The position numbers were made by a program, and so were the translations under genes. From positions 96,001 to 160,000 of the forward strand of contig OZ242008.1 of assembly GCA_965204735.1 (NCBI GenBank): DNA of 64,000 bases, in the 5' to 3' direction. Positions 3,821 to 49,887 of this stretch are shown in pieces. Numbering within the stretch: position 1 is the first letter of the stretch; each line of letters opens with the position of its first letter. The stretch comes from Longimicrobiales bacterium. Lineage in GTDB: Bacteria > Gemmatimonadota > Gemmatimonadetes > Longimicrobiales > Gaopeijiaceae. Below the pieces are notes generated by a model. The model searched no databases and was not told where the DNA came from. It saw only the letters and a list, made by a program, of their open reading frames with translations.

Positions 3821-4507
3821 TCACGGTTCCCCCAAGCTCTCCATCCGCTCCATCCAGGCATTGAAGTTCGGACAAGCTGCACGGATTTCGTGAAGTCCGA
3901 TCCGCGAGGCAGCGACTAATCCGTCAGCGACCTTCTGATACCCGGGTGCGACCTCCAAGATGCGCTTGGACGGCGCCGTGGATACGCCATCGTCGATCTC
4001 CTCTGGCGTGCCGAAGCGGCTCATGACTTGATGGAATCGCCGCACGGCCCGGTCTTGTTGAGAACCAAGCGACACTACCCTTCCCAGAACCTCTGGTGCG
4101 GCAAACAACAAGGCCTCAAACTCATGCAACTGCACATACGGTATGAACGCATCGGGGCGCCAGTGCTTCCCCACTATTCCCTCCATCCTTGCGTACATTT
4201 CGTTTTCGATTTCAGTGGCCTTCTGGCCATGGGGCCTGCGAGCCGCGGCCGCCCGTCCTGGCCAATCAAGCGGCATGCCGTAGTAGTCGAACATCGTCGT
4301 CACGTGACGGCCGCCATCCTCCTGAAGCAATCGACGCAGTTCCTTCTCTGTTTGTTTCCATGACTTCACTCCGCCTGTGACGCGAGGCCTGCCCATGGTG
4401 GTCGTTTGCAAGTGGACGCCTCTGTTGCCCAAGAACGGTGCAATCAATTCGTTGCAGAATCTTTCTTCTGTCTGGCCTTCCACCAACGCCAGGATCCGCA
4501 CACTCAA
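3821..4507 (-). CDS. DUF4276-family protein (TOPRIM-like)
   Basis: Motifs LVEGQTEE, TTMFDYYGMP, PYVQLHEFEALLF, PEEIDDG..TAPSKRI and YQKV..G. TTG start overlaps the upstream ATPase stop. Confidence 0.82.
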   Translation of the reverse strand: MSVRILALVEGQTEERFCNELIAPFLGNRGVHLQTTTMGRPRVTGGVKSWKQTEKELRRLLQEDGGRHVTTMFDYYGMPLDWPGRAAAARRPHGQKATEIENEMYARMEGIVGKHWRPDAFIPYVQLHEFEALLFAAPEVLGRVVSLGSQQDRAVRRFHQVMSRFGTPEEIDDGVSTAPSKRILEVAPGYQKVADGLVAASRIGLHEIRAACPNFNAWMERMESLGEP

Positions 4508-5655
4508 GGACGACCTCCAAACAGGTTCTTTTCCCACAGTTCGCTGAGCGAGTAGTCCTCCAGCCACTCCGTCAGGGCTTCTTCGGCTAGTCGCTTGTAC
4601 TGGGTACCGGACTTGGCGTCCGCTTCAAGCACGGCAATCTGGCTCGGCTTGAATTCGTCTACCAACCTAGTCGATTGAGTTGCCAGGATCACTTGCACCC
4701 TCGTAGCCGCGGATTTTGCCAGTGCCGCAAGCACGACTATGGCTGATGGATGAAGGCCAAGCTCGGGTTCGTCCAGCACGATCACGTTGGGAAGCCTGGG
4801 CTGGAGAAACAGCGTCGCAAGAGCCATGAAGCGTAAAGTTCCGTCGGAAATCTGATGCGGCCCAAGGAGATATTCATGTCCCCTCTCGTGCCAGTTCAGC
4901 AGTATCTTGTTAGGATCCGTGGTTCGTGGACCCAAATCGAATCCACCGAACGCGGGAAACGCCAAGCGGATGGTCTCCTCAATCCGGCGGTAGCATTCTA
5001 GATCGGTCCGCTCCAGCCCATGGAGAAACGCGGCCAAGTTGCCGGCATCGTCTCGCAAGTACCGATTGTCCTCGATGTACGCGCTCTTGCGAATGTTGGC
5101 ACGAAACGACGTATCGTGAAACTGGTATCCTCGACAAAGGGAAAGCAGCCACAGCACCACGTCGCATGTCTTGTTGCCTTCGTCCCGCTTCTCCTGCAGC
5201 CGGCTTTCCCCGTGGCCGGAACCAAGCAGGAGCCGCTGGGGCTGGGCATAGCCAGCACGATGGTATTCGACTCGTTCTTCGGCGAACAACATGGTGTCGG
5301 GAGCCGCATCCATGAGTCGCATGTGGTATGTGGTGGTGGTCTTCTCATATGCGCCGTCAGCGCCACCGAACTCGACCTCGGCACGCATCTGCGGAGTCGT
5401 CCTGGCTCCGTAGCGCAAAAGCGATTCTGATCCGCCCTCCCGGCCGATGTAGAGTTGAAGGCTATTCGTGCTTACAAATCCGAGCATCCGGAAGAAAGAC
5501 ACAAGGTTGCTCTTTCCAGATCCATTGGCCCCGAGCAGCACCGTGATGTCGCCGAAATCAACCCTGCTTGACGCGAACGACTTGTAGCCCTCGATGGCGA
5601 TGCTGTTCAGCCTGCTTGTCTTGCTCTCGGTGCCGTCGGTCAAGGAATGCTCCAT
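4504..5655 (-). CDS. ABC-type AAA ATPase (AAA_21/AbiEii-like)
   Basis: IEGYKS, Walker A GANGSGKSN, signature SDGTLRF, Walker B LDEPELGLHP, ATQS. Confidence 0.9.
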   Translation of the reverse strand: MEHSLTDGTESKTSRLNSIAIEGYKSFASSRVDFGDITVLLGANGSGKSNLVSFFRMLGFVSTNSLQLYIGREGGSESLLRYGARTTPQMRAEVEFGGADGAYEKTTTTYHMRLMDAAPDTMLFAEERVEYHRAGYAQPQRLLLGSGHGESRLQEKRDEGNKTCDVVLWLLSLCRGYQFHDTSFRANIRKSAYIEDNRYLRDDAGNLAAFLHGLERTDLECYRRIEETIRLAFPAFGGFDLGPRTTDPNKILLNWHERGHEYLLGPHQISDGTLRFMALATLFLQPRLPNVIVLDEPELGLHPSAIVVLAALAKSAATRVQVILATQSTRLVDEFKPSQIAVLEADAKSGTQYKRLAEEALTEWLEDYSLSELWEKNLFGGRP

Positions 5656-5807
5656 GTGTTCCGCGGAACGTTGGGGTGGGGCGTCAGCCTGCGCCAAAGC
5701 CTCGCACGCTGTTCGAGGGGGTTCGTAAGCTAGGAACGGTCATAGCGAAACCTTGGATCGCCGTCCCTGGGCGTCAAGCCCCCTCGGGGGAGGTTGAATC
5801 CGCTCGT

Positions 5808-5884
5808 GCCACCATTCTACTACCATTTTGCTGCCATTCTACTACCAAGATGCCTCCGTTTTACTACCGTTCCGCTACCATTGC
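5808..5884 (+). repeat. Seven tandem 11-bp direct repeats (consensus RCTACCATTYT), putative protein-binding array
   Basis: Units gccaccattct/actaccatttt/gctgccattct/actaccaagat/gcctccgtttt/actaccgttcc/gctaccattgc, at exact 11-bp phase. Confidence 0.85.
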
Positions 5885-5923
5885 GCGAGAGGCCTCCCCA
5901 CTACAGCCCGCTCTAGTGCCCGG

Positions 5924-8137
5924 CTACGTTCCGGGCCGCCACACACGCTCGGCGACCCGTCTGAACCTTGCGTCGCCCCGGATCGGGTCCCAGATGGGAC
6001 TGGCCAAGGACTTGCCCAGGAACGGTTCCCGCCGGGCGACGGCTTCTTCCAGGTGCTCGAAGGCTTGGTCGACGTCGCCCAGACCCACCGCTGTGAACGC
6101 CTGGACCGTGTGGGGGACGTGCTCGCCACGGGCTTGACGAGCTTGAGCCTCCCGCAGCCGGAGCCGCCAGTAGCTTCCCCGGTCGTCCTCGTCGAAGGCC
6201 TCCCAGAGCTCGTCGATCCGCTCCGCCCGCTCCGGCGTGTCGTCCTGCGTGGCCAGGATGTGCTGCTCGCGCACCTTGACCGCGCCGGCGTAGTCACCGC
6301 GCAAGAGATGCAGGTCCTCCAAGACCAGCCAATTGACCTCGTCCTCGGGGTCCGCGGTCACCAGCTCCCGGTAGCTCGCGGCTGCCCGGTCGTACTGGCC
6401 GGAATCCAGAAAGCGGTCCGCTGCGCGTCGTCGCCGAGCCAAGGCCCGGTCTTCGCTGGTCACGAGCACTGGACGGTTCCCGCGATCCGCAACGAACCGC
6501 TCCACGCGCCTACCGATCTCGGTCGAGCTGCGTACGTAGGCGCGAGCCAGCGAGTCGGTGGCAACTCCGGCCTCGGCCAGCGCCGCCTCCACATCCTCCG
6601 CCAGTCCCTCGTCAAACTTCATTGTAACGTTCAACAGGGCAATTCGGAAGACGTCCAGCTCTCGCTTCGGCGCACCCAGCAACTCCGCCCGGTGCAACGA
6701 CTCCTGAATGCGCGCAACGGACTCGTGCGGAGTTCCCGCGCCATGCGCACCGTCCCCGCCCCGGCCCGCAGCCCCGTGCGGAGCCTCGCCCGTTGCCTCG
6801 TGCGTAGCCCCGTGCGTAGCCTCGCCCGCAGCCTCGTGCGTAGCCCCGTCCCGTCGCCTCGTGCGCAGGGTCGCCCCCGGCCCATCCGAAAGCTCCGTCG
6901 GTTCCCCCGGAAACGCGACCGACCCGCCGTCCGCCTTTGCCAGCAGCACGAGCCCCGCCTCGGCCCGCCCCAGCCACGCCAGTCCGAAGGTCGAGTCGAT
7001 CCCGACGGCTTCGGTGAAGTGCCGCATCGCTTGCGCCGCCGCCCGATCCAGCGCCATCTCGGCGTCGGCGCCCAAGTTCTCCGCTTCCAGGCCCAGGTCC
7101 CGCTCGCCCATGTCCACGCCCACCGCCTCCAAGCCCAGCTCGTGGTCCAGCTCCTCCCAGCCCTGGAGGTAGGCTTGGTGCGCCTCGGGATCGACGGCTG
7201 CCACGTGCTCGACGGTCGGCACCGCCGGTTCACCCTCCACTTCCGCCTGCACCGCCTGCGCAATCTCCAGCGCGATCTCGGTCTGGAGGCGCAGGATGTC
7301 GGTCATCTCCCGTTGGTAGGTGCGCGTCATCAGGTGAGTGTCCGACGGCGCGTGAAGCAGCTGGATGCTGATCCGCACGCTGTCGTTCTCGGCCGTCATC
7401 GCCACCGAGCCCGTGACCACGGCCTGGACGCGCAGCTCCTGGGCGATCCGCGGCAGCTGCATCGTGGTGTCGGCGTAGCGGGCGACCGAGGTGCGCGAGA
7501 CGACCCGGAGGCTGGTCATCCCGGTCAGCTGGTTGATGATCTCGTCGTGCAGCTGGCGGGCGAAGAGGTCGCCCTGGCCCTCGGCGAAGTTCGCCAGGGG
7601 CAGCACGGCGATCGCCGCGACCGGCGCCTCGGGGTCGAAGTTGGCGAAGACGGGGCCGCCTCTGGGGCCTCGCGAGTCGGAAGAGCCGGGGCCCGGAGCC
7701 AGCCGGGCTTGGCGGGCCGCCCAGAAAGAGGACCGCCAGCCGGAGCCGTCCCCTTCGGATGCGGACATGAAGCTTCGGCTGAACCAGACGGCCGCGAACG
7801 CCACCGACACCGTCGTCACCCCCAGAAGAGCGAGGCGCGGAGCAAGGGAGCGCACGGCCCCCTGCCCCGACGTTCCGGCGGAAGAGTCCTGCGTCCGCCG
7901 CAGCCCCTCCGACGTGAGCTCGTAGGCCCAAGCCACCGCCAGCACCACCGGCAGTCCCAAGGCGGCTGCCACCACCAGCGACTGCAAGGCCCAGTCGGGC
8001 GTGTTGAAGGCCGGCAGCACGATCTCGCCCAGCTGAAGCGCGACGAAGGCGGCGACCGCGTAGAAGCCTCCGGCCCGCACCACCTTCCGGCGGCGGAGCT
8101 CGTTCCAGAAGGGACCGAACCCGGACTTCAGGCTCAT
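5924..8137 (-). CDS. Membrane-anchored TolB-N-like/TPR protein
   Basis: N-terminus FWNELRRRKVVR followed by TM helices, then IAVLPLAN...LRVVSRTS domain, TPR-like helices and C-terminal WDPIRGDARF. Confidence 0.8.
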   Translation of the reverse strand: MSLKSGFGPFWNELRRRKVVRAGGFYAVAAFVALQLGEIVLPAFNTPDWALQSLVVAAALGLPVVLAVAWAYELTSEGLRRTQDSSAGTSGQGAVRSLAPRLALLGVTTVSVAFAAVWFSRSFMSASEGDGSGWRSSFWAARQARLAPGPGSSDSRGPRGGPVFANFDPEAPVAAIAVLPLANFAEGQGDLFARQLHDEIINQLTGMTSLRVVSRTSVARYADTTMQLPRIAQELRVQAVVTGSVAMTAENDSVRISIQLLHAPSDTHLMTRTYQREMTDILRLQTEIALEIAQAVQAEVEGEPAVPTVEHVAAVDPEAHQAYLQGWEELDHELGLEAVGVDMGERDLGLEAENLGADAEMALDRAAAQAMRHFTEAVGIDSTFGLAWLGRAEAGLVLLAKADGGSVAFPGEPTELSDGPGATLRTRRRDGATHEAAGEATHGATHEATGEAPHGAAGRGGDGAHGAGTPHESVARIQESLHRAELLGAPKRELDVFRIALLNVTMKFDEGLAEDVEAALAEAGVATDSLARAYVRSSTEIGRRVERFVADRGNRPVLVTSEDRALARRRRAADRFLDSGQYDRAAASYRELVTADPEDEVNWLVLEDLHLLRGDYAGAVKVREQHILATQDDTPERAERIDELWEAFDEDDRGSYWRLRLREAQARQARGEHVPHTVQAFTAVGLGDVDQAFEHLEEAVARREPFLGKSLASPIWDPIRGDARFRRVAERVWRPGT

Positions 8138-8306: not shown

Positions 8307-8400
8307 TTGGCCAGCGACCGGAGGCGGGGTTGTCCGGCGAGCTTGGCCAGCGACCGGCGGCAGGGTTGTCCAGCGGGGTTGTCCAGCGACCGGAGAGTTG
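8307..8400. repeat. 36-bp tandem repeat, ~2.5 copies, in a divergent intergenic region
   Basis: ttggccagcgaccggaggcggggttgtccggcgagc / ttggccagcgaccggcggcagggttgtccagcgggg / ttgtccagcgaccgg. Confidence 0.7.
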
Positions 8401-17586: not shown

Positions 17587-19869
17587 GTGGCGCCACCGTT
17601 GCGCGCGACCCTGCGGAGCTTCGTCGCGGGTCTCCCAGCGGTCCTGACCGCCGCGGGTCTCCCAGCGGTCCTGACCGTCGCGGGTCTCCCAGCGGTCATG
17701 GCCGTCGCAGGGCTTTCGGCTCCAACTGTCGCCCAGAGCTTGCCGCCCTCGATCCAGGTCGGCCCGCCGCCGGGTCCGTCCTCGATCGTGCGGGCCCACC
17801 GCACCGACGCGCCCCCGACGATCGACGGCGTGCTGGACGAAGCGTTCTGGCAGCAGATCGAGCCCGTCGCCGACTTCCGGCAGCGCACGCCCGTGGACGG
17901 CGCGCCGGCCTCGGAGCGCACCGAGTTCCGTGTCGCCTTCGACCAGAACGCCCTCTACTTCGCCGTCGTGGCCTACGACTCGGAGCCCGAGTCGATCCGC
18001 CGGAGCATCCTCCACCGCGAGGGTCGGATCGACCAGGACGACAACATCAGGATCGGCCTCGACACGTACCACGACCGGCGCAACGCCTACATCTTCGAGC
18101 TCAACCCCTTCGGCACCCAGGGCGACGCCCTGATCACCGACGAGTCGATGACGCTGGCGGACTGGAACTGGGAGGGGGTCTACGAGAGCGAGGGCAGAGT
18201 CACCGAAGACGGCTGGGTCGTCGAGGCCGCCGTCCCCTTCACCACGATCCGCTTCTCCGACGACGAGGCGCCGACGATGGGCATCCTCGTGGAGCGCACG
18301 ATCCGCCGGAAGAACGAGTTCGTCTACTTCCCCCACGTGAGCCAGGAGTTCCGCAGCGGTCTCGTGCAAGTCTCCCAGTACGCCACGCTGGAGGGCTTGG
18401 AGGACCTGCGACGAGGCCGCTACATGGAGGCGAAGCCCTTCGTCATTGCGGGGCGGTCCGAGTCGGGCCGAGCCGCCGACGAACCGGGGGCCGTCGAGAC
18501 CCTCCGCGAGATCGGGCTGGACTTCAAGTACTCGATCACGTCGAACCTGACCCTGGACGCCACGCTGAACCCCGACTTCGCCCAGGTGGAAGCGGACAAC
18601 GTCCAGATCAACCTGACCCGCTTCAGCCTCTTCTTCCCCGAAAAGCGCGAGTTCTTCCTGGAGCGCGCGGGGCTCTTCAACTTCGGCGACGCCCGCGAGA
18701 CGGAGGTGTTCTTCAGCCGCCGAATCGGCATCGCCAACGACATTGCCGGCGGGGGACGGCTGACCGGCCAGGCGGGTCCCCTCTCCATCGGCGCCCTGAG
18801 CCTGCTCACCCAAGACGCCCGGGACTCGCAGGGCAGGCTCGTGCCCGGCGGCCTCAACTCGGTGCTGCGGCTCCGAGCGGACCCGTTCCCGCGCACCACC
18901 GTCGGCGGTGTCCTCACGTCGCTGGACGCGGGCGACCAGTGGAACCGAGTCGCCGGCGCCGACGTGCAGGTCAGGTTCGGCGGCTCCAGCTCGGTGGTGG
19001 GATGGGCCGCCCGCTCGTTCCAATCCGACGGGCCCAACGCCACCGCGGGCTCGATCGAGGCCAGCGTGGGCAACAGCGTGGCTTCGATCCGAGGCGGGTT
19101 CGCCCGCGTGCCACGGGAGTTCGACCCGGCCCTGGGCTTCGTGCGGCGGCGCGACATGCAGCGCTGGGAAGGGTCCCTGGCGGCGTTCCCGCGCTTCGAG
19201 TCCAGCCGCTGGGCGCGGCAGGTGGTGGCGGCGTTGAACGGCACTCACACCGTAGGGCTGGACGGGGCCAAGCAGAGCGCGGGCCTGCTTGCCCACAGCA
19301 TGCTGACCTTCCAGACGGGCGACTGGCTGGTCTTCAACGCGCGTCGCCGCTCCGAGACCCTGCACGTGCCCGTCAGCATCCAGGGACGGTGGCTGGATGC
19401 GGGCGAGTACGCCTTCAGCACGGCCGAGCTCCGCTGGCGCTCCAACGACAGCCGACCCCTCTCGACTCGCGGCGGCGTCTCCACCGGCGGCTTCTGGGGA
19501 GGCGACAGGACCCAAGTGTCGGTGGGCGGCCAGTGGAAGACGGGGCCGTACCTGACTGTGGGCGCCGACTACGTCTGGAACCGGATCGGCTTGCCCGTCG
19601 AGGACGGCGACTTCACCACGCGCCTCTTCGGAGCGACGGTCCTGGGCGCCGTCAGCCGTTCCCTCTTCGCCAACGCCCTGGTCCAGTACGACGACGTGTC
19701 CAACGTGGTGCAGGCCAACGTGCGCATCGACTGGATACACACGCCGGGCAGCGACCTCTTCGTCGTCTTCGACACCGGCTACGTTGTCGGCGACTTGCTG
19801 GACCCGCGCACCGAGCGATGGCAGCAGCGCACGGGCGTCGTCAAGCTCACCTACCTGAAGGCGTTCTGA
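17587..19869 (+). CDS. CBM9-like / DUF5916 outer-membrane protein (start uncertain)
   Basis: PTIDGVLDEAFW, DTYHDRRNAY.F..NP.G, NPDFAQVEAD, FFPEKREFFLE, C-terminal VKLTYLKAF. Confidence 0.85.
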   Translation: MAPPLRATLRSFVAGLPAVLTAAGLPAVLTVAGLPAVMAVAGLSAPTVAQSLPPSIQVGPPPGPSSIVRAHRTDAPPTIDGVLDEAFWQQIEPVADFRQRTPVDGAPASERTEFRVAFDQNALYFAVVAYDSEPESIRRSILHREGRIDQDDNIRIGLDTYHDRRNAYIFELNPFGTQGDALITDESMTLADWNWEGVYESEGRVTEDGWVVEAAVPFTTIRFSDDEAPTMGILVERTIRRKNEFVYFPHVSQEFRSGLVQVSQYATLEGLEDLRRGRYMEAKPFVIAGRSESGRAADEPGAVETLREIGLDFKYSITSNLTLDATLNPDFAQVEADNVQINLTRFSLFFPEKREFFLERAGLFNFGDARETEVFFSRRIGIANDIAGGGRLTGQAGPLSIGALSLLTQDARDSQGRLVPGGLNSVLRLRADPFPRTTVGGVLTSLDAGDQWNRVAGADVQVRFGGSSSVVGWAARSFQSDGPNATAGSIEASVGNSVASIRGGFARVPREFDPALGFVRRRDMQRWEGSLAAFPRFESSRWARQVVAALNGTHTVGLDGAKQSAGLLAHSMLTFQTGDWLVFNARRRSETLHVPVSIQGRWLDAGEYAFSTAELRWRSNDSRPLSTRGGVSTGGFWGGDRTQVSVGGQWKTGPYLTVGADYVWNRIGLPVEDGDFTTRLFGATVLGAVSRSLFANALVQYDDVSNVVQANVRIDWIHTPGSDLFVVFDTGYVVGDLLDPRTERWQQRTGVVKLTYLKAF
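17623..17703 (+). repeat. 3 x 27-bp tandem repeat encoding (V/A)AGLPAV(L/M)(T/A) in the signal region
   Basis: gtcgcgggtctcccagcggtcctgacc x3 with minor variants. Confidence 0.85.
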
Positions 19870-20649: not shown

Positions 20650-22242
20650 CTACTGCCCGTGCGGCTCCGACGAAAGCGACTTGGCCCACTCGGGGACCAC
20701 GGCGGGGTCGATGTCGAAGACGACCAGGCCCAGCGTGTAGACGATCGTCGCGATCACCAGCACGCCGATCAGGTTGAGGAAGATGCCTGGTCGAGCCATC
20801 TCGCCCACCGTGATTCGGTTGCTTCCGAAGACGATGGAGTTGGGCGGCGTGGCCACCGGCATCATGAAGGCGCACGACGCCGACAGCGTGGCCGGAACCA
20901 TGAGAAGCAGGGGATGGGTCCCTGTGGCCACCGCGACCGACGCCAGGATCGGAAGGATCATCTCGGTGGTGGCGGTGTTGCTGGTCAGTTCGGTCAGGAA
21001 CGTCAGCGAGAGGCAGATGAAGAGGATCACCACGAAGGGCGGCAGCACGCCCAGCACGCTGAACTGGTCTCCGATCAGCTGCGCCAGCCCGGTCTGCTGA
21101 AAGCCGCTGGCGAGAGCGAATCCGCCCCCGATCAGCAGGACGATGTTCCACGGCAGGCGCGGGATCACGTCCGGGCCCATGACCCGGGTGTCGGGGACGC
21201 TGCCGGCGCCCGGAGCGTCGTTCGAGCCGCCGGCGTGCGGCCGATTCCGCGTCGGGATGAAGAAGAGCGCCGACGCCATGCCGATCGCCACCGTGCCGTC
21301 GTCGACGAATCCGCCGAAGGGAAGCAGGCTGGACCAGCCGGGGATCGTGATCGCGTCCCCGATCCGCAGGTCGGCGCGGAAGACCCACAGCAGGGCCGTG
21401 AGGGCGAACACCACCGACACCGCCCGTTCCTCGTGGGATATGCGCCCCAGCTTGGCGCGCTCCCGCTCCACCACCTTCGTGTCCACGTTCACGCCCTCCG
21501 GGGCGCGGTAGACGACGTGGGTGATCAGGAACCAGGCGACCGCCAGCATGATCGCGCCGATGGGCAGCGCCACGACCATCCAATGGCCGAATGCGATGGC
21601 GGGCGCCTCGGGAAAGAGGATCTCGAAGATGCGCTGGAACGACAGGTTGGGCGGCGTGCCCACCAGCGTGGTCAGCCCGCCGACGGAGCAGCCGTAGGCG
21701 ATCCCCAGCATGAGGCCGACGGAGAAGGGGCGCGCCTCGTCGCCGGCCGTGTCCTCGATCTGCAGCACGATGGCCAGGCCGATCGGCACCATCATCACCG
21801 CCGTCGCCGTGTTCGATATCCACATCGAGAGGAACGCCGCCGCCAGCATGAAGCCCAGCACGATCCGCGCCGGTCCGCCGCCGACGAAGTGGATGATGTT
21901 CAGCGCGATGCGGCGGTGCAGGTTCCACTTCTCCATCGTCAGGGCGATCATGAAGCCGCCGATGAAGAGGGCGATCGTGCTGTTGAAGTACGCCGGCACC
22001 GTGTCTCCGCCGTCCATGACGCCCAGCAGGGGGTACAGCACGATGGGGACCAGGGCCGTTGCGAAGAGCGGAATCGCGTCGCTCACCCACCACACCGCCA
22101 TGAGCACCGCCACCGCCGCCAGCCGGCTGGCAGGCAGGTTGTCGGGCGCGACGGGAAACGCCAGCAGCAGCAAGGCGAGCGCGGGACCGAGCCACAGCCC
22201 GATGCGACGACCGCGCCCGCCGCGCGAGTTGTCGGTTGCCAT
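20650..22242 (-). CDS. SLC13/DASS family anion:sodium symporter
   Basis: LSMWISNTAT, TLVGTPPN, TELTSNTAT, CAFMMPVATPPN. Confidence 0.93.
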   Translation of the reverse strand: MATDNSRGGRGRRIGLWLGPALALLLLAFPVAPDNLPASRLAAVAVLMAVWWVSDAIPLFATALVPIVLYPLLGVMDGGDTVPAYFNSTIALFIGGFMIALTMEKWNLHRRIALNIIHFVGGGPARIVLGFMLAAAFLSMWISNTATAVMMVPIGLAIVLQIEDTAGDEARPFSVGLMLGIAYGCSVGGLTTLVGTPPNLSFQRIFEILFPEAPAIAFGHWMVVALPIGAIMLAVAWFLITHVVYRAPEGVNVDTKVVERERAKLGRISHEERAVSVVFALTALLWVFRADLRIGDAITIPGWSSLLPFGGFVDDGTVAIGMASALFFIPTRNRPHAGGSNDAPGAGSVPDTRVMGPDVIPRLPWNIVLLIGGGFALASGFQQTGLAQLIGDQFSVLGVLPPFVVILFICLSLTFLTELTSNTATTEMILPILASVAVATGTHPLLLMVPATLSASCAFMMPVATPPNSIVFGSNRITVGEMARPGIFLNLIGVLVIATIVYTLGLVVFDIDPAVVPEWAKSLSSEPHGQ

Positions 22243-22329
22243 GAAGGGAGAAGAATGGCGCGGGGGCGGGGTGGGAGCAAGAACCAACCCCGGAAAGCAG
22301 GGCGGCGCGCGGGGCCCAGGTCTTCGTCG

Positions 22330-22494
22330 TCGGCTTCTGGGTGCCCCGCGGCCTCTGGGCTTCCCGCGGCTCCTCGGTGCCCCACAGCCTCTCGGCGGGC
22401 TCGCGGCCTCTCGGCTTCCCGCGGCCTCTGGGCGTCCCGCCGGCCTCTCGCGCTCGTGGCCTCTCGGCGTCCCGCGCCCTCTGGACGCCCCGCG
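22330..22494. repeat. ~9 degenerate 18-bp tandem repeats (gcggcctctSggcktccc) at the left island edge
   Basis: Visible repeated units such as gcggcctctgggcttccc, gcggcctctcggcttccc, gcggcctctgggcgtccc and gtggcctctcggcgtccc. Confidence 0.75.
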
Positions 22495-22497
22495 TAG

Positions 22498-22503
22498 TAT
22501 ACT
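22498..22503 (+). promoter_or_regulatory. Putative -10 box (TATACT) for a leaderless brxF transcript
   Basis: TATACT ends 7 nt before ATG 22511 and there is no Shine-Dalgarno sequence. Confidence 0.5.
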
Positions 22504-22510
22504 GTACGGA

Positions 22511-23134
22511 ATGGAAGCCCTTGCCGACCGGATCGAACGCCGGGCCCGCGAAGCCGCGTCGCTCCATCATCGACTGGTGCTCGTCGCGGGTCCGCCCGGC
22601 TCGGGCAAGACGACGGCTCTGCGAAAGCTGCGGGACCGCACCGGCGCGCCCCTTGTGAACGCCGGCCTCGAGCTCTCCCGCCGAATGCTGGAGCTGACCG
22701 AACGACAGTGCAGGCTCCGCCTCGCCGGGTTGCTCGGCGACGTGGTGGACGAAGCCCACGCCCAGCAGCGGGAAGCCAAGTCCCAGCAGTGGGAAGCCGC
22801 ATCCCACCGCCCGGAAGCGGCGGCGGGGTCGGCGCCCGACCGAGTGGTCCTGCTGGACAACATCGAGATCGTCTTCGATCCGGTGTTCCAGCACGACCCT
22901 CTTCGGCTGCTCCAAGGGCTGTCGCGCCATCGGGTGGTCGTGGCGGCTTGGCCGGGCGCCGTCGCCGAGGGGCAACTCGCGTATGCGGTTCCCGGCCACC
23001 CGGAGCACCGTTCCTATCCGGTCGCAGAGTTGAGCCGAGGTTCGATCGTGGTGGCCGCCCAGGCCGGCTTCCGACCCTTGACCGCGCTGGAACGCTCCCC
23101 GCAGGACCACCCCCCACAGGAACGCCGGCGATGA
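22511..23134 (+). CDS. brxF: BREX type 3 P-loop protein BrxF
   Basis: [33 protein letters not shown]...[21 protein letters not shown]. Confidence 0.88.
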
Positions 23135-26100
23135 AGTACCGCGACCTGGTCCAGTTCGACTCCATCGAGTCCGTGGTGCAGCTTCGCAACGCGGCGAAGC
23201 AAGACGAGGCTCGGCGGCTGGTCGAGTCCTACGTCGTGTCCGACGAGATGGCGGAGAAGCTGTCGGCGGTGGTGATTCCCCAGCTTCAGTACGACGCTGC
23301 CGCCGACAACCGGGGCCTTCTGGTAGTGGGCAACTACGGCACGGGCAAGTCCCATCTGATGGCGGTGCTGGCCGGGGTCGCCGAGCACGCGGAGTTGGCC
23401 GAGCGCCTCACGCATCCAAAGCTGGTCGAGGCAGCCAGGGCCGTGGCGGGCCGCTTCAAGGTGATCCGGGTGGAGATTGGGGCGTCGCAGATGCCCTTGC
23501 GGGACATCGTGGCGAACGAGCTGGAGGAAGGGACGGCCGCCATGGGCGTCCGCTACGCCTTCCCGCCCGCCGACGAAGTGCGCAGCAACAAGCACTGCTT
23601 CGAGGAGATGATGACGGCGTTCCACGGCGTCTTCCCCGACCACGGCCTCTTGCTGGTGGTGGACGAGCTCCTGGACTACTTGCGGTCGCGGAAGGACCAG
23701 GAGCTGGTGTACGACCTGAACTTCATGCGGGAAGTGGGCGAAGTGTGCCGCGACTTGCGCTTCCGCTTCATGGCCGGCGTGCAGGAAACGATCTTCGGCG
23801 CTCCCTCGCTGGCGTTCGCGGCCCAGGCGCTTCGGCGGGTCAAGGACCGCTTCGAGCAAGTGCTCATCGCCAAGAGCGACGTGAAGTTCGTGGTGGCCGA
23901 GCGCCTGCTGAAGAAGACGGCTGACCAGAAGGCCAGGATACGCGAGCACTTGGCGCCCTTCGCCAAGTTCTACGAGCGCATGAACGAGGGCATGGACGAG
24001 TACGTGCACCTATTCCCCGTGCACCCCGCCTACATCGACACCTTCGACCAAGTGGCCCAGGCCGAGAAGCGGGAGATCCTCAAGACGCTCTCCCGAGCGA
24101 TGCACAAGATGCTCGACGAAGAGCTTCCCGCGGATCACCCGGGACTCGTCACCTACGACAGCTACTGGAACACGTTGCGCGAGAACCCGGCGTTCCGCGC
24201 CGTGCCAGACATCCGCGCCGTCGTTCAGTGCAGCGAAGTGCTGGAGGCGCGGGTCCGGCAGGCGTACACGCGGCCCCAGTACATGGCGATGGCGCTGCGG
24301 ATCATACACGCGCTCTCGGTCCACAGGCTCACGACCGGCGACATACACTCGAAGCTGGGCGCCACGGGGAAGGAGCTGCGGGACTCCTTGTGCCTGCACC
24401 AGCCCGGCGTCGAGAACCTGGGGGGCGATCCGGCCGACGACCTCCTGACCCAGGTCGAAGCCGTCCTGCACGAGATATACAAGACGGTGAGCGGCCAGTT
24501 CGTCTCGTCGAACCCCGACAACGGCCAGTACTACCTGGACCTGAAGAAGACCGACGACTACGACGCCTTGATCGAGGCGCGCGCCGAGACGTTGGAGGCC
24601 TCCAAGCTGGACCGCTACTACTACGACGCGCTCCGGCGGATCATGGAGTGCACGGATCAGACCTACGTCACCGGCTACCAGATATGGGAGCACGAGCTGG
24701 TCTGGCCGGACCGGAAGGCGTCCAGGCGCGGCTACTTGTTCTTCGGGGCGCCCAACGAGCGTTCCACCGCCGTGCCTCCGAGGGACTTCTACCTGTACTT
24801 CATCCAGCCCTACGAGCCGCCCCGGTTCAAGGACGAGCAGAAGCCCGACGAGGTGTTCGTGCGGCTGGCGCGCCGCGACCAGACCTTCGACGAAGTGCTG
24901 ACAAGCTACGCCGCGGCGGCGGACTTGGCGCTGACGTCGTCGGGGCACGCCAAGAAGACCTACCAGGAGAAGGCGGACGGCTTCCTGCGCGAGATCGTGA
25001 AGTGGCTTCGCGAGAACATGATCGACGCCTTCCAGGGCACGTACCGGGGCCGCGCTCGAAGGCTGGTCGAGTGGAGCAAGGAGAAGTCGGTGCGCGAGGT
25101 CGCGGGCTTGCGTCCCGACGATGTGATCGACTTCCGCGGCTTCGTGAATGCGGTGGCCGGCCTGTGCCTATCGCCTCACTTTGCGGACCAGGCGCCCGGG
25201 TACCCCCGCTTCTCCGTGCTGGTCACGGACCAGAGCCGGGAACAGGCGGCCCGGGACGCCCTGCAGGTCGTGGCTGGCAAGCGCCCGACCGCCCAGGCCA
25301 CCGCTGTGCTGGACGCGCTGGGGCTGCTGGACGGCGACCGCATCGACCCCTCCGGCTCGCCCTACGCCGGACACGTGCGGGAGCTGCTGGAGCGGAAGGG
25401 TCACGGGCAGGTCGTGAACCGGAGCGAGGTCGTCGAGGTCGATCGCGGCGTCGAGTACATGGACAAGAACGGCCAGCGCCTGGAGCCCGAGTGGGTGGTG
25501 GTCGTGCTGGCGGCGCTGGTGCACTCCGGTCACGTGGTGCTGGCGGTGCCGGGGGCGGTGTTCGACGCGGTCGGTCTTCCCGAGATGGCGAAGCGCCCGA
25601 TCAAGGAGCTGATCGACTTCAAGCACTACAAGGCGCCGAAGGAGTGGAACCTGCCGGCGCTGACCGCCTTGTGCGAGCTGGTCGGCTTGCAGCCCGGCAC
25701 CGGCCGGCTGGCGACGCAGGGCCAGCAGGCGGCGGTCCAGCAGCTGCAGGAGAAGCTGACGGAGGTGGTGCAGCGGCTGGCCAAGAGCACGCACCTGGTC
25801 CATGAGGGACTTCCGTTCTGGGGCGCGCCCCTGCTGGCGGACGACGAGACCCAGCGGCTCCACGAAGGCATGAAGGGGACCAAGGTGTTCCTGGAGTCCC
25901 TTCAGGCGTACACGACGCCCGGCAAGCTGAAGAACTTCCGCCACTCCACCGACGATGTGGAGTCCCACGGCGCGGGCATGAAGTGCCTGGAGGAGGTCGA
26001 CGCGCTGAACAAGCTGCGGACCAGCTTGGACCCGCTGGCGTCCTACTTGACGGCCGCGCTGGCGGGACTGCCGTCGGAGCACGGATGGGCTGTTCGGGCG

Positions 26101-26865
26101 GGGAAGGTCCGGCGGGACGTGCTGACGCGCTTCGCCGACCCCAAGATGCGTCGCTCCGACGAGTTCCGCCGCAACGCCGGCCAAGCCCTGCGAGACCTGA
26201 AGGGCGAGTACGCGCGCATCTACTTGGCGGCTCACGCCAAGCACCGTCTGGGAGCGGCCGGCCAGGCGCAGAGGCGGCGCCTGCTGGCGAGCGCCCGGCT
26301 GAAGGGGCTGGCCAAGTTGTGCGCAATCGAGCTCCTGCCCAAGCGGCAGCTGGACGACTACCGCGAGCGGCTGAAGGGACTGGCCGCGTGCACGGCGCTC
26401 ATGGAGTCCGAGCTGCGCGCGGCGCCGGTGTGCGGCCACTGCGGCTTCCGCCTGGGCGTTGGCGACTCGGGGCCGTCGGCGGAGTCCGTGCTGGACGCCC
26501 TCGACCAAGCGGCGGACCGAATGCTGGCGCGGTGGTCCGACACGTTGCTGGAGAACTTGGCCGACTCCACCGCCCAGGAGAGCTTGAAGCTGCTGGAGCC
26601 GGCGGCCAAGGCGCTCGTGGACCGGTTCGTGGCCACTGGTCGGCTTGCGCAGGACCCGGAGCAGGAGCTGATCGACGCCTTGGCCGAGGCGCTGGCGGGG
26701 CTCGAGAAGGTGTCGGTGAGGCCGGCCGAGCTGTGCGCCGCCGTGGCCCCCGACGGCGCGCCCTCGACCCCGTCCGAGATGGTGAAGCGGCTGGCGGGCT
26801 GGTTGGAGGACCAGGTCGGCGGACGGGACGCGAGCAAGGTCAGGATCGTGCTGGAGGAGGAATGA
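23131..26865 (+). CDS. brxC: BREX type 3 ATPase BrxC/PglY (DUF6079)
   Basis: [57 protein letters not shown]-terminal CxxC; 1244 aa. Confidence 0.9.
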
Positions 26866-26905
26866 CACGGGACGGGGCGGAAAGAGGGTCGTACTGCCGC
26901 AGAAC

Positions 26906-26969
26906 GGGGTTGGTCACTGACCAAGCTGCCGCGCCTAAAGGGGGGTTGGTCACTGCTGGAGTGACCAAC
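26906..26969. promoter_or_regulatory. Two related palindromes upstream of pglXI (operator-like)
   Basis: TTGGTCA-C-TGACCAA (26910-26924) and GTTGGTCACT-GCTGG-AGTGACCAAC (26945-26969). GGGGTTGGTCACTG is repeated 36 bp apart, and TTGACG follows at 26970. Confidence 0.55.
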
Positions 26970-27027
26970 TTGACGGGACGCCGCAATTTGATTATACATT
27001 AAGAATGGTTTGCCCCGTACCCACCCC

Positions 27028-29814
27028 ATGACCAACTCGCCGAGCAAGCTCTTTGAGCGGAAGGCGACCCCGACGACCGACCAGGTCGAATGCTTGGGCC
27101 TGACCTTCGAGTCCGACGACGCCCGGCGCGAGCACTTCTTGCAGCGGCTGCGCGAGAAGCTCCCCGAGTTGCGCAAGCGTTCCGACTTCCCCAAGGGGGA
27201 GGACGAGAACATCCTGCGCATGTCGGACCCGCCGTACTACACGGCCTGCCCGAACCCCTTCCTGGCCGAGTTCGTCGAGTGCTACGGCGCGCCCTACGAC
27301 CCCGCCGAGGAGTACCACCGCGAGCCGTTCGCCGTGGACGTGAGCGTGGGCAAGACCGATCCGCTCTACCGGGCGCACGGCTATCACACCAAGGTGCCCC
27401 ATCTGGCGATCGTCCCGTCGATCCTGCACTACACCGAGCCCGGCGACATCGTGCTGGACGGCTTCTGCGGCTCGGGGATGACCGGCGTGGCCGCCCAGTG
27501 GTGCGGCGCGGTCCCGGAGGAGTACCGCCGCAAGCTCGAGAAGGAATGGAAGGACCAAGGCCGGGAGCCGCCCAAGTGGGGCGCGCGGCGGACAGTTCTG
27601 GGCGACCTGTCCCCCGCGGCCACCTTCATCGCCGCCAACTACAACATCCCCTTCAACGTGGACGAGTTCGCCGAGGCGGCCAAGCGGCTGCTGGACGATG
27701 TGGAGAAGGAAGTCGGCTGGATGTACGAGACGCTCCACACCGACGGCAAGACCAAGGGTCGGATCAACTACACGGTATGGAGCGAGGTGTTCTCGTGCCC
27801 GGAGTGCGGTGGAGAGGTGGTGTTCGGCAGGGAGGCGGTGGACGCCCGGACCAAGAAGGTGAAGAAGGAGTTTCCGTGCCCGGAGTGCGGGGCGGTGCTG
27901 ACGAAGATACGGCTCGTGCGGAGCTCTTCTGCCCGGTGGGACCGAGCCCTTGAACGGAGCGTAGACGAACCCAAGCGAGTGCCTGTCCTCATCAACTATC
28001 AGATCGGCAACGACAGGCACGAAAAGGAGCCGGACAGCGCCGACCTTCAACTTCTCGAACGAATCGCAGCCATGGAGCCCCTTCAAGGCGTGCCTTTGGA
28101 CCGCATGATGCACGTCTCCGACGGCGTGACCAAGTGGGGCGACAAGTGGCGGGCCGGATCTGCCTCGTTTCAACACGTGCACCATTTGTTCTTGCCTCGA
28201 GCCGCGCGTACTCTGGCTTGCCTGTGGGGCCGGGTTCGCCAACAGAACGACCTGCGGTTGCGCAACATGCTCGTGTTCTTGGCCGAGCAGGCGATCCTCG
28301 GCATGTCCATCTTGAATCGGTACGGTCCAACCCACTACTCCCAGGTGAACCGTGCGATGTCCGGGGTGTACTACGTCAGCTCCCAGATCTCGGAATGCTC
28401 TCTACGCTACAACCTAGCCGGACGCACTGGTCGATTGCCCAAGGCGTTCACGCCCATGCCTTCGCGTCGTGGCCATGCTGTCGTATCGGCCGTGGACTGC
28501 GGACGCATCCCGATTCCGGCGGATTCCGTCGACTACATCTTCACTGACCCACCCTTCGGCGACAGCTTGGCCTACGCCGAACTCAACTTCGTCGTCGAGG
28601 CGTTCCACGGCGTCTTCACGAACCAAGCTCCGGAAGCGATCGTCAGCCCGACGTACCGCAAGCAGCTGGACGAATACCAAGTGCTCATGCGACGCTGCTT
28701 CCGCGAATACGCCCGGGTGCTCAAGCCGGGGCGGTGGATGACCGTCGTGTTCCACAACTCCCAGAACTCGGTTTGGAACGCCATTCAGGAGGGCCTGTCC
28801 GCCGCCGGCTTGGTCGTGGCCGACGTGCGCACGCTGGACAAGAAGGTGGGCTCCTACAACCAAGCCGTTGCCAGCGGCGCCGTGAAGCAAGACCTGGTCA
28901 TCTCGTGCTACAAGCCGTCCCGCGACCTGGAGGCGCGCTTCAAGCTGACGGCCGGAAGCGAAGACGGCGTCTGGGAGTTCGTCCACAATCACCTCAGGAA
29001 CCTGCCGGTGTTCGTGGCCAAAGGGGACGTGGCGGAGATCGTGGCCGAGCGCCTCGACTACCTCCTCTTCGACCGAATGGTGGCGTTCCATGTCCAGCGA
29101 GGTGTCATCATCCCCCTCTCTGCCGCCGAGTTCTACGAAGGCCTGAAGCAGCGGTTCGCGGCCCGCAACGGTATGTACTTCCTCCCCGAGCAAGCCGTCG
29201 AGCACGACCGCAAGCGCCTCACGGTCCGGCGCATCGAGCAGTTGGCCCTCCTCGTAACCGACGAGAAGTCCGCCATCGAGTGGTTGCGCCTCCAGCTGAA
29301 GGCCCGTCCCCGGACCTTCCAGGCGATCCACCCCGACTTCGTCCGCGAACTCGGCGGCTGGCAGAGGCACGAGCAGCTTCTGGAGCTGTCCACCCTCCTG
29401 GAGCAGAACTTCCTCTGCTACGACGGCGAAGACGAAGTCCCCTGCCAGATTCACGGCTACCTGTCCAGCAACTACAAGAACGCCCGCAACCTCCCCAAGG
29501 ACGCTCTCCACCTCCAGAAGCGCGCCAAGGACCGCTGGTACGTACCGGACGTCAACAAGGCCACCGACCTGGAGCGGCTCCGGGAGCGCACGCTCCTCCG
29601 GGAGTTCCAGACCTACCGAGAGCCGTCGCTGCGGCGCCTGACGAAGTTCCGCCTGGAGGCCGTCCGCGCCGGCTTCCGCCGCGCCTGGGGAAAGGGCGAC
29701 TACGACACGATCCTCGATATCGCCCGGAAGGTCCCCGACAAGGTGCTCCGGGAGGACCTCCAGCTGCTGATGTGGTACGACCAGGCGAAGAGAAGAAAGG
29801 AGGCGGAGGGGTGA
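27028..29814 (+). CDS. pglXI: BREX type 3 DNA methyltransferase PglXI
   Basis: SDPPYYTACPNP, HGYHTKVP, motif I DGFCGSG, two CPECG motifs, motif IV DYIFTDPPF, RVLKPGRW. Confidence 0.88.
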   Translation: MTNSPSKLFERKATPTTDQVECLGLTFESDDARREHFLQRLREKLPELRKRSDFPKGEDENILRMSDPPYYTACPNPFLAEFVECYGAPYDPAEEYHREPFAVDVSVGKTDPLYRAHGYHTKVPHLAIVPSILHYTEPGDIVLDGFCGSGMTGVAAQWCGAVPEEYRRKLEKEWKDQGREPPKWGARRTVLGDLSPAATFIAANYNIPFNVDEFAEAAKRLLDDVEKEVGWMYETLHTDGKTKGRINYTVWSEVFSCPECGGEVVFGREAVDARTKKVKKEFPCPECGAVLTKIRLVRSSSARWDRALERSVDEPKRVPVLINYQIGNDRHEKEPDSADLQLLERIAAMEPLQGVPLDRMMHVSDGVTKWGDKWRAGSASFQHVHHLFLPRAARTLACLWGRVRQQNDLRLRNMLVFLAEQAILGMSILNRYGPTHYSQVNRAMSGVYYVSSQISECSLRYNLAGRTGRLPKAFTPMPSRRGHAVVSAVDCGRIPIPADSVDYIFTDPPFGDSLAYAELNFVVEAFHGVFTNQAPEAIVSPTYRKQLDEYQVLMRRCFREYARVLKPGRWMTVVFHNSQNSVWNAIQEGLSAAGLVVADVRTLDKKVGSYNQAVASGAVKQDLVISCYKPSRDLEARFKLTAGSEDGVWEFVHNHLRNLPVFVAKGDVAEIVAERLDYLLFDRMVAFHVQRGVIIPLSAAEFYEGLKQRFAARNGMYFLPEQAVEHDRKRLTVRRIEQLALLVTDEKSAIEWLRLQLKARPRTFQAIHPDFVRELGGWQRHEQLLELSTLLEQNFLCYDGEDEVPCQIHGYLSSNYKNARNLPKDALHLQKRAKDRWYVPDVNKATDLERLRERTLLREFQTYREPSLRRLTKFRLEAVRAGFRRAWGKGDYDTILDIARKVPDKVLREDLQLLMWYDQAKRRKEAEG

Positions 29815-29837
29815 GCGGCAAGACTCCTCTGCCCGGG

Positions 29838-31427: not shown

Positions 31428-31511
31428 TGCCGTCCTCCTTCGAGAGGTTCGTCGCGTCCCTCTAACCTAACCAAACTGGAGCGCCAGCGCAGGGACTTTT
31501 GCCACAGGCTG
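29996..31511 (-). mobile_element. 1516-bp insertion sequence (IS1182/IS5-like)
   Basis: Terminal inverted repeats CAGCCCGTGGCAAAA / TTTTGCCACAGGCTG, flanked by CTAG at 29992-29995 and 31512-31515. Confidence 0.92.
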
Positions 31512-48576: not shown

Positions 48577-49062
48577 CTACAGCTCCGCCACCCGCAGCAT
48601 CCGCAGCCCGGGCGTCTCGGGCATCTCACGGTCGGCGGTCAGGAAGTAGCCGCAGCCGCTCGAGAGCGCCGTGCCGAGGTGCACCGCCGCGGGCGTCGGA
48701 ACCGACGACGTGGCACGCAGCCGGCCCGCTTCCCGCACGACGGCCCGGCCCACGTCGATCAGCTCAAGCCCAGGCGAGGCGGCCAGCGCGGCGGCGCACC
48801 GCTCGGCGAACCGCCAGCGCCCGAGCCGGTACGGCGCCACCAGGACGTCCATGAGCGCGAGGACGGACGCGACCAAGCGGAGTTCGCGCCGGTCCGCCAT
48901 CTCGAACACGGGCGCGACACGCGGAGCGACCTCGGGGTCGTCTGCGACCCACCCGACCAGCACCGTGCCGTCCACGCAGACCCTCTGGCCGGCAAGCCGA
49001 CCAGCGCCGGACGCCAGCCCGGCGACGCCCCCACCGTCCCGCTGGGTCAGCTCACTCGCCAT
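48577..49062 (-). CDS. PIN-domain (VapC/FitB-like) protein with a degenerate catalytic set
   Basis: VCVDGTVL, MDVLVAP, AGRLRA....TPAAVHLGTA, FLTADR. Confidence 0.75.
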   Translation of the reverse strand: MASELTQRDGGGVAGLASGAGRLAGQRVCVDGTVLVGWVADDPEVAPRVAPVFEMADRRELRLVASVLALMDVLVAPYRLGRWRFAERCAAALAASPGLELIDVGRAVVREAGRLRATSSVPTPAAVHLGTALSSGCGYFLTADREMPETPGLRMLRVAEL

Positions 49063-49354
49063 CGTCCGGGACCGCCCGCTCGCGCCTCGCGCCTTGGACC
49101 TCATCCTCCTTCCAGCCATCAGAACGGCTCTGGACCGACGTTCCGACATCCTGCGTCGGCCGTCCCTCGGCCTCTGCCCACAGCTCTTGGCCAAGGCCCC
49201 GAATCTGCTGGAGCGACGGCGGCTGTCCCTGCTGGATCGCCCGCTCGAGCAGGAAAGTGACGTGCCCCGAAAGCGACCGGTGATGGCGGTCGGCGTCGTC
49301 TTGGAGCTCTCCGTAAAGCTTGTCCGGGAACCCCTTGATGCTCAGCGTGGCCAC
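49052..49354 (-). CDS. FitA-like ribbon-helix-helix (Arc-family) antitoxin/regulator
   Basis: GGAGG RBS and GTG start; MATLSIKGFPDKLYGELQDDADRHHRSLSGHVTFLLERA...SLQQIRGLGQELW. Confidence 0.82.
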   Translation of the reverse strand: MATLSIKGFPDKLYGELQDDADRHHRSLSGHVTFLLERAIQQGQPPSLQQIRGLGQELWAEAEGRPTQDVGTSVQSRSDGWKEDEVQGARRERAVPDDGE

Positions 49355-49367: not shown

Positions 49368-49466
49368 GTTTTGGTGGTGTTTTGGTAGTATTTTGGAGGC
49401 ATACTGGTAGCATTTCGCCACCGTTTCGCATCCAAGACGCTACCATTTTGGTAGCAGAATGGTAGT
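49368..49466. repeat. Nine 11-bp repeats in both orientations (RCTACCAWWWT-like) upstream of the FitA-like gene
   Basis: Minus strand: gctaccagtat, gcctccaaaat, actaccaaaac, accaccaaaac (49411-49368). Plus strand: gccaccgtttc, gcatccaagac, gctaccatttt (49417-49449). Minus strand: gctaccaaaat, actaccattct (49445-49466). Confidence 0.82.
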
Positions 49467-49686
49467 ACTCTACCGAAAGAAGGTGCAAGGTGCAAGCACC
49501 GACCAAGGGGGTTGCGCGCGAAGACCAGGGGGCAGCGCGCAAGGCGCCGGCCAAGCAGCCGCGGCCAGCTTGACACCTCGCCCTCCGCCGCCCCATGGTA
49601 ATCGCCACGGCGCGAACGGCCGGCCTCTCCGAACGGAGGCCCGCTGGGCAGGAGCGTTTCCCCACCAGAACTGGAGGACGGCAGGT

Positions 49687-49887
49687 ATGGCCAAAGGGAC
49701 GGTCAAGTGGTTCAACGACTCGAGAGGCTACGGCTTCATCTCCCAGTCGTCGGGCGAAGACGTCTTCGTCCACTTCACCTCGATCGAGGGATCGGGCTTC
49801 CGGACCCTCTCCGAGGGCGAGGAAGTCGAGTTCGAGGTCAAGGAAACGGAGCGGGGCGTCCAAGCGGCCAACGTGATCCGCGCCTGA
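49687..49887 (+). CDS. cspA: Cold-shock protein
   Basis: [38 protein letters not shown]-18-CATGGT lies upstream at 49570-49599. Confidence 0.95.

Follow-up and report, generated by a model that had tools for sequence, protein, structure and literature searches.

We describe a candidate regulatory link between two distant loci in a 64,000-nucleotide stretch of a Longimicrobiales bacterium genome (GenBank assembly GCA_965204735.1, contig OZ242008.1, positions 96,001 to 160,000 of the forward strand; hereafter the window, whose own coordinates we use throughout). The window carries two arrays of short, phased boxes that lie 43.5 kb apart. Array 2 adjoins the start of a gene for a ribbon-helix-helix (RHH) protein, the first gene of an RHH-PIN pair of toxin-antitoxin (TA) type, and array 1 lies upstream of HEC-01, an operon of an ABC-type ATPase and a DUF4276 protein. 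Our reading, which we hold tentatively and at somewhat short of an even chance, is that the RHH protein, helped by its PIN partner, coats both arrays and represses both its own operon and, in trans, HEC-01. The link of array 2 to the RHH protein appears strong, and that of array 1 to the control of HEC-01 is plausible. Coordinates of the features discussed are collected in Table 1, and arrays were counted in these 64 kb of the genome.

TABLE 1 Arrays, genes, and intergenic DNA at the two loci (window coordinates)
Feature	Coordinates	Strand	Description
Array 1	5807..5883	+	Seven in-phase 11-bp units in one orientation; box type T-R-C-T-A-C-C-A (7 to 8 bp) plus AT-rich spacer
Array 2	49369..49467	-	Nine boxes of the array 1 type with AT-rich spacers, centers 10 to 12 bp apart; palindrome at 49439-49455
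RHH gene (P0001), 100 aa, GTG start	49052..49354	-	N-terminal ribbon-helix-helix domain, Pfam RHH_5
PIN-domain gene, 161 aa	48577..49062	-	Pfam PIN, 30.2 bits versus cut-off of 23.6
HEC-01A ABC-type ATPase (P0002), 383 aa, ATG at 5655	4504..5655	-	Pfam AAA_21/AAA_15; PADLOC HEC-01A, E 3.3e-127
HEC-01B DUF4276, Toprim-like (P0003)	3821..4567	-	Pfam DUF4276, E 4.6e-47; PADLOC HEC-01B, E 3.8e-70
Spacer from array 1 to ATPase start, 151 bp	5656..5806	-	65% GC; short GC palindrome at 5779-5790
TPR-repeat gene, 943 residues	5924..8755	-	Stop codon at 5924-5926, 40 bp from array 1; same direction as HEC-01
Cold-shock protein gene	49687..49887	+	Pfam CSD, E 4.7e-27; divergent from RHH gene, followed by polA and ssb

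The likeness of the two arrays exceeds chance by several measures. The motif YRCTACCA occurs 14 times in the window against 1.93 expected, a count that none of 100 shuffles reached, and 8 of the 14 occurrences fall inside the arrays, which are also the only places in the 64 kb where three or more CTACC/GGTAG motifs cluster within 120 bp. As a guard against circularity, we built a matrix from each array alone and applied it to the remainder of the window. The matrix trained on array 2 found its best cluster elsewhere at array 1 (5 matches; 1 of 200 local-composition shuffles reached 5), and the matrix trained on array 1 found its best cluster elsewhere at array 2 (7 matches; 0 of 200 shuffles). 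A joint matrix gave 52 matches in the window, 15 inside the arrays and 37 outside them, the latter all isolated, and Tandem Repeats Finder assigned period 11 to both arrays (5811-5847, score 53; 49368-49396, score 44). At the level of sequence, then, the arrays are real, specific, and related, and their boxes form one family. The original prediction had proposed such a shared repeat family, with which the window counts, clusters, and cross-trained matrices agree; its array positions were right to within one base, and the 27-mer that it matched between the arrays is present in the sequence and in the BLAST alignment.

This likeness is confined to the arrays and operates at the level of the unit, such that each unit can be aligned with every other, whereas past the edges there is no alignment. 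When units are paired by position, 4 of 42 core positions differ versus 17 of 24 spacer positions (Fisher p 4.5e-7), although we chose the pairing ourselves, and the test is partly circular and mainly restates that a conserved box sits in a free spacer. Spacers are A/T-rich in both arrays, but T predominates in those of array 1 and A in those of array 2, and therefore the arrays are not recent copies of each other. We rejected a segmental duplication as their origin because the alignment ends at the array edges, so that the arrays are not the two ends of a recent one. We also rejected mobile-element ends and integrase arm-type sites, given that ordinary core genes with host-like codon GC, including accA, a peptidase M1 gene, and transporter genes, lie between the arrays. 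An Rfam search found nothing at either array, only weak, below-threshold matches inside neighboring genes.

Array 1 lies within the 268-bp gap separating two minus-strand genes, 151 to 228 bp upstream of the ATPase ATG, close to the offset of about 150 to 230 bp given for it earlier. Its cores read, in order, TGCCACC, TACTACC, TGCTGCC, TACTACC, TGCCTCC, TACTACC, and CGCTACC, and each is followed by a 4-nt spacer of mostly A/T. An invariant TACTACC box thus recurs with a 22-bp period, alternating with more variable boxes, and all boxes are oriented away from HEC-01. Array 2 is of mixed orientation, as is evident from both the matrix scan and the plus/plus BLAST alignment: six boxes face the RHH gene, starting at 49369, 49380, 49391, and 49402 (gene-proximal) and at 49446 and 49457 (distal), and the three middle boxes (49416, 49427, and 49438) are reversed, one of them making a palindrome with its neighbor. 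Nine minus-strand units had been predicted here; the number stands, but the uniform orientation does not. The steps from center to center, obtained by hand arithmetic from the box coordinates rather than as tool output, are 11, 11, 11, 10, 11, 11, 12, and 11 bp. Both arrays are AT-rich islands (44 to 47% GC) in a window of 67% GC, with one A/T run per helical turn.

The tie between array 2 and the RHH gene comes from its position and from a relative. As had been predicted, array 2 stands directly upstream of the gene, and the 14-nt gap between it and the GTG at 49354 contains a GGAGGA ribosome-binding site. The array overlaps the leader and promoter region of the RHH-PIN operon, and by its placement it has the classical autoregulation layout for such an operon. 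Many degenerate boxes, regular spacing, and AT-rich spacers beside an RHH gene, the features of omega-, ParG-, and ParR-type arrays, are all found at this locus. Three relatives of the RHH protein were found, and relatives start at the same residue as the window gene. The annotation of the relative P0005, which is 92% identical, adds 27 residues at the N terminus. The end of this extension equals the upstream translation of the window in the RHH frame; the beginning of the extension equals the window array read in another frame (nine identical residues, then conservative changes), and the upstream lengths of P0005 and the window differ by exactly 11 nt. The extension is thus a read-through of the operator array of P0005, and the public gene call probably starts too early. 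The relative has the same array plus one unit, and the array therefore travels with the RHH gene and changes by whole units.

On its other side, array 2 ends 219 bp upstream of the ATG of the cold-shock gene (csp). The distal boxes contain a CAGAAT hexamer (read by eye) reading toward csp, and a TTGACA-18-CATGGT promoter-like candidate lies between the array and csp at 49570-49599.

RHH_5 is the only Pfam RHH family whose cut-off the RHH protein passes (30.6 bits versus a cut-off of 26). It had been labeled FitA-like, a name that does not survive: the protein scores 19.9 bits against Pfam FitA-like_RHH (PF22513), where the cut-off is 27, and its best PDB chain by sequence is no better than E 0.65. 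Because it falls below the FitA-like cut-off, the resemblance to FitA should carry no weight. The FitA half-site cited alongside that label, TGCTATCA, was not confirmed, and a literature search with the string returned unrelated top matches. A tblastn search with the window RHH protein found no other RHH gene in the window, and the same kind of search against plasmids gave one distant match of the Arc family (37.5% identity).

The RHH and PIN genes have the layout of a VapBC-type pair, in which two small, co-oriented genes overlap, the antitoxin gene comes first, and its product carries an N-terminal DNA-binding domain, here RHH. The PIN gene begins inside the RHH gene and shares its last 11 nt (8 coding nt and the stop codon), and the C-terminal DGE of the RHH protein, encoded across the overlap, is invariant in 4 of 4 relatives. 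A structural model of the RHH-PIN complex scored 0.75, versus 0.00 for the best control, with runs agreeing on at least 80% of contacts and a partner pLDDT of at least 66. Of 157 solved complexes, 116 attain the 0.75 mark, as do 2 of 215 mismatched pairs; these counts are only rough because the alignments were our own, and since RHH-PIN complexes such as FitAB are already solved, the pass may reflect likeness to them. With these limits, the RHH and PIN proteins are predicted to bind each other, and the modeled contact region (RHH residues 45 to 62) is conserved among the four relatives.

The PIN protein departs from its family in its acidic residues. We aligned 127 of the 150 relatives listed, dropping those outside 135 to 180 residues. 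The D125 column holds D in 126 of the 127 relatives and A in the window, the E72 column holds E in all 127 and D in the window, and the E40 column holds E in 110 and A in the window; D31 and D144 are retained. The conserved acidic active-site set of PIN toxins is therefore incomplete in the window protein, whose nearest relatives, P0010 and P0011 (63% and 57% identity), retain both E72 and D125. No relative of the PIN protein was found in the PDB by sequence. A PIN nuclease that loses one metal-binding acid is expected to be severely impaired. This genome may carry an inactive toxin and, because the PIN protein has lost a near-invariant catalytic aspartate, the pair may now be mainly a regulator rather than a poison and its antidote. 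The predicted TA pair is thus backed by overlapping genes and a predicted complex, but with a PIN protein that lacks a near-invariant aspartate it may be a former one.

At the other locus, HEC-01A and HEC-01B are adjacent, overlapping genes on the minus strand, the arrangement by which PADLOC recognizes HEC-01; the true start of HEC-01B is probably internal, near 4498. An AAA/DUF4276 (ATPase-TOPRIM) module had been predicted here, and Pfam, the PADLOC HEC-01 match, and the placement of DUF4276 in the Toprim superfamily in the accessible text of PMC12065111 bear this out. Its description as a defense module holds insofar as it is a PADLOC HEC-01 candidate; in the accessible part of the study that named HEC-01, the system is described as an ABC ATPase paired with a Toprim protein, and it protected against none of the phages tried (bioRxiv 10.1101/2024.01.29.577857). 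Array 1 is the sole AT-rich patch upstream of HEC-01 (47% GC versus 65% in the spacer), and the TAGAAT hexamers at two of its unit junctions (5841-5836 and 5819-5814), read on the HEC-01 sense strand, are the only -10-like hexamers in this upstream region and its best candidates for such an element. We found no RHH or PIN remnant near array 1, as tblastn of both proteins against the window returned only their own genes, and array 1 thus lacks a dedicated regulator gene. A terminator scan gave 0 sites in either intergenic region, and a transcript of 5656-5930 folds less well than shuffles (z +1.94).

A conserved G/C-containing box set in a free AT-rich spacer and used in either orientation is, by analogy, the pattern described for arrays coated by RHH proteins. 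In the mechanism that we propose, one RHH dimer would read one box via its beta-ribbon, and dimers on neighboring boxes would line up on the same side of the helix, forming a cooperative coat along the array like those of omega and ParG. PIN dimers would probably bridge the RHH dimers, as in FitAB/VapBC, and tighten binding. Coating at array 2 would shut off the RHH-PIN operon; coating at array 1 would cover the AT-rich patch and its TAGAAT hexamers, with the result that either HEC-01 is held off or read-through from the TPR gene is blocked. A drop in RHH level, for instance if a labile antitoxin is degraded, would release both targets together. Regulation of both loci by a FitAB-like complex had been the core of the original prediction, and the shared boxes, the operator position of array 2, the predicted complex, and the orphan state of array 1 are in its favor, while the FitA label has dropped out of it and the toxin may no longer be active. 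A bolder extension, which we regard as improbable, is that the disarmed TA pair serves as an infection-sensing switch: a labile RHH protein, kept on the DNA by a dead PIN partner, would coat the arrays at its own promoter and at the distant operon, and perhaps act on the cold-shock gene, and loss of RHH during phage attack or stress would induce the defense operon in trans. The autoregulatory circuit of a TA pair would then have grown into a regulon.

A number of observations weigh against control of HEC-01 in trans by the RHH protein. Around array 1, the TAGAAT hexamers lack a good -35 partner, the array is 151 bp from the ATPase ATG, and a scan for consensus sigma-70-type promoters gave 0 sites in either intergenic region. 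The changed PIN residues could equally mean a decaying pair. A common order of unit variants in the two arrays, the 27-mer included, was tried as a sign of one duplication and discarded, as 6026 of 20,000 permutations equaled it. Comparative support is also absent: a 19-base pattern that the two arrays share is absent from genome_contigs (0 matches in 185,579 species genomes), blastn of array 2 against plasmids and phages gave no match, and blastn of array 1 against plasmids gave one insignificant match (E 0.2). A search of genome_contigs for loci related to the ATPase P0002 gave 26 pattern matches, of which 0 were confirmed.

The remaining points of this kind concern the separate careers of the two systems. 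GC content is 57 to 58% in HEC-01, which is foreign in composition, versus 67% in the RHH gene and 75% in the PIN gene, which look native, and their histories therefore differ. Of 8000 candidates scored for HEC-01A, 7637 are relatives at E ≤ 1e-30, versus 3 relatives for the RHH protein, and HEC-01 therefore generally lives without this RHH protein; the closest relative of HEC-01A is on a 97,904-bp contig, and that of the RHH protein is on a 10,241-bp contig. That closest HEC-01A relative is 98% identical, thousands more at 50 to 85% identity occur in diverse bacteria, and the DNA flanking HEC-01 (a galactokinase-like gene and the TPR gene) has 70% GC; HEC-01 (3821-5655) looks like a horizontally moving cassette. 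We inspected 10 of the 20 plasmid records matching P0002, and a comparable array was upstream of HEC-01 in 0 of these 10 loci, which likewise counts against the proposed control and indicates that HEC-01 cassettes do not normally come with an array of this kind. No regulator recurs upstream of HEC-01 among the 10 inspected loci. In Acinetobacter sp. TR11 plasmid pTR11_2 (2238-4763), a vapB (MazE/AbrB type, not RHH)-vapC pair lies directly upstream of HEC-01 in the same direction, which may be coincidence, and upstream of other plasmid loci we found an XRE-type HTH gene (one locus), a ParB-HTH fragment (one), and two small proteins without a Pfam match (one).

Part of this evidence fits an alternative in which array 1 is a true RHH binding site that does not control HEC-01, being instead a remnant or side effect of rearrangement, through the loss of a neighboring copy of the pair or an old inversion that split or duplicated a longer array, or else a decoy that does no more than titrate free RHH protein. 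We consider this unlikely, though it is the alternative to be taken most seriously. It would accommodate the location of array 1, 151 bp from the ATPase start but just 40 bp past the TPR stop codon, and the direction of its boxes, which all point away from HEC-01. HEC-01 is foreign in composition while its spacer and flanks are host-like, and therefore the cassette may have landed beside a pre-existing array. Moreover, inverting the segment 5884-49368 would place HEC-01 divergent from RHH-PIN across a 16-box array and make the defense genes contiguous. However, the tblastn searches of the window found no RHH or PIN coding remnant near array 1, which gives no support to the leftover operator of a deleted TA pair that the original prediction had offered as its alternative, and the cores have been kept while the spacers diverged, which is unexpected of a decaying relic. 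A recent inversion is further opposed by the core genes inside the 43.5-kb segment, which are oriented like the flanks; GC skew shows no inversion signal but is uninformative.

It is distinctly unlikely, in our estimate, that another DNA-binding protein owns the boxes, or that they belong to a dispersed intergenic repeat family, with the nearby RHH gene incidental. Two arrays per 64 kb would, if evenly spread, amount to hundreds per genome; array 2 is upstream of the cold-shock gene as well, so a different regulator could own it; and the RHH-box link draws on sequence position. Against this, array 2 abuts the RHH ribosome-binding site in an autoregulation layout, an array accompanies the RHH gene in the relative P0005, the window has no second RHH gene, and the 37 matrix matches outside the arrays are all isolated. 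The absence of the 19-base pattern from the 185,579 species genomes, which deprives our reading of comparative support, also argues that the boxes are not a widespread repeat family. Least probable by far is that no sequence-specific protein is involved and the arrays are phased A/T tracts of intrinsically bent promoter-upstream DNA or a chance resemblance: both are AT-rich islands in a GC-rich window with A/T runs once per helical turn, but the conserved part of the unit is the G/C-containing box rather than the A/T run, and the cross-trained matrices beat local-composition shuffles (1 of 200 and 0 of 200).

Coating of both arrays by the RHH protein, the reading that we prefer, has partial precedents. 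ParR binds 11-bp iterons of plasmid R1 parC. The RHH protein omega of plasmid pSM19035 binds arrays of heptads at a number of separate promoters, including one that drives a TA operon, with one RHH dimer per short repeat that polymerizes over direct and inverted repeats, according to the accessible text of PMC4803016. The omega arrays differ from ours in having contiguous 7-bp heptads rather than 11-bp units of box plus spacer; omega is the third component of omega-epsilon-zeta and not an antitoxin, and its targets are copy-number and partition genes on one small plasmid, whereas the target proposed here is a chromosomal defense candidate 43.5 kb away. ParG of TP228 offers a second likeness, two arrays for one RHH protein: its OF operator and parH centromere comprise 8 and 12 degenerate boxes with AT-rich spacers that are read indirectly, and one RHH dimer per box coats about 100 bp cooperatively, with mixed orientation and tolerance of inversion (as described in the accessible part of PMC3130281). 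ParG differs in its 4-bp boxes and 4-bp spacers (period 8 versus period 11 here), in the placement of its arrays, side by side in front of the ParG operon itself, and in its partner, a ParA-type partition ATPase. No ParA or ParM gene lies beside the window RHH gene, the neighbors of which are the genes for the PIN protein, a PRiA4_ORF3 protein, a STAND NTPase, and the cold-shock protein.

In FitAB and VapBC, according to the accessible portions of the sources, PIN dimers bridge RHH dimers on operator half-sites. These systems resemble the window pair in that a small DNA-binding antitoxin gene (RHH or AbrB) comes first, the PIN gene overlaps it, and the operator is at the pair's own promoter, and a complex is predicted here too. 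FitA half-sites have N14 spacing. The known operators are one or two inverted repeats, whereas here there are 7 to 9 phased boxes, and we found no second, distant operator described in the accessible portions of those sources; furthermore, the window PIN protein has alanine at a near-invariant aspartate and the RHH protein falls below the FitA-like cut-off. The antitoxin MqsA is similar in that it reportedly acts on genes outside its own operon, binding operator-like sites upstream of rpoS, csgD, and cspD, with de-repression on its degradation (accessible text of PMC4803016). It differs in having no RHH fold, in using single palindromes rather than arrays, and in targeting stress and biofilm regulators rather than a defense candidate. 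Members of the BrxR family, which carry a WYL domain, are reportedly dedicated repressors of defense islands. RptR is a small repressor acting on direct repeats in a defense-island promoter, as the accessible text of PMC12255303 describes it. Both RptR and BrxR are encoded beside their targets and are not halves of TA pairs, whereas the candidate regulator here is 43.5 kb from its target.

Elsewhere in the window, ordinary core genes occupy 6 to 22 kb, and a defense island extends over 22.5 to 49.4 kb, with genes for BrxF, BrxC, PglX, an IS transposase, a Schlafen/AlbA protein, PglZ, a PIN_3 protein, a second HEC-01A-like ATPase, a STAND NTPase, a PRiA4_ORF3 protein, and the PIN-RHH pair. The BREX-type system (BrxF, BrxC, PglX, and PglZ; 21710-41237) is broken between PglX and PglZ, where there is a DDE transposase gene (29838-31427) together with a low-GC stretch of about 6.4 kb (31.5 to 37.9 kb, 58% GC), the latter encoding the Schlafen/AlbA_2 protein (35005-36348). 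The second HEC-01A-like ATPase (PADLOC E 1.2e-149) lies in 44758-48507 without a DUF4276 partner, followed by the STAND NTPase (AAA_16/nSTAND1) and the PRiA4_ORF3 protein; its open reading frame as listed has an N-terminal extension of about 120 residues, and the start is uncertain. Other tandem repeats occur at 6764-6868 (period 12/24/36), 8307-8395 (36), 17622-17708 (27), and 22331-22494 (18/37/53/55), with periods of 12 to 55 bp that are mostly multiples of three, and at least the first three fall within coding sequence, that of the TPR protein among others. The window shows negative GC skew from about 1 to 20 kb and positive skew from about 49 to 64 kb.

Keyword searches of open-access text returned no description of the whole combination. 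What would be new is this combination, namely, a VapBC-type pair with a phased multi-box operator, an orphan second copy of that operator at an ABC-ATPase/Toprim operon, and a disarmed PIN protein. The silencing and induction of defense systems is known for a few dedicated regulators, such as BrxR and RptR, and the role of chromosomal TA pairs beyond self-regulation is still disputed. The locus offers a clean test, with one RHH gene, two defined box arrays, and one candidate target operon that has no regulator of its own. If the RHH protein does not bind array 1, a rare VapBC-type pair with an unusual multi-box operator and an orphan copy of it would remain. If it binds both arrays, TA operators can take the multi-box form of plasmid partition and copy-control proteins, the autoregulation circuit of an antitoxin can be extended to a distant chromosomal defense module, and a means of inducing HEC-01 would be at hand; to date, HEC-01 has shown no activity in a foreign host.

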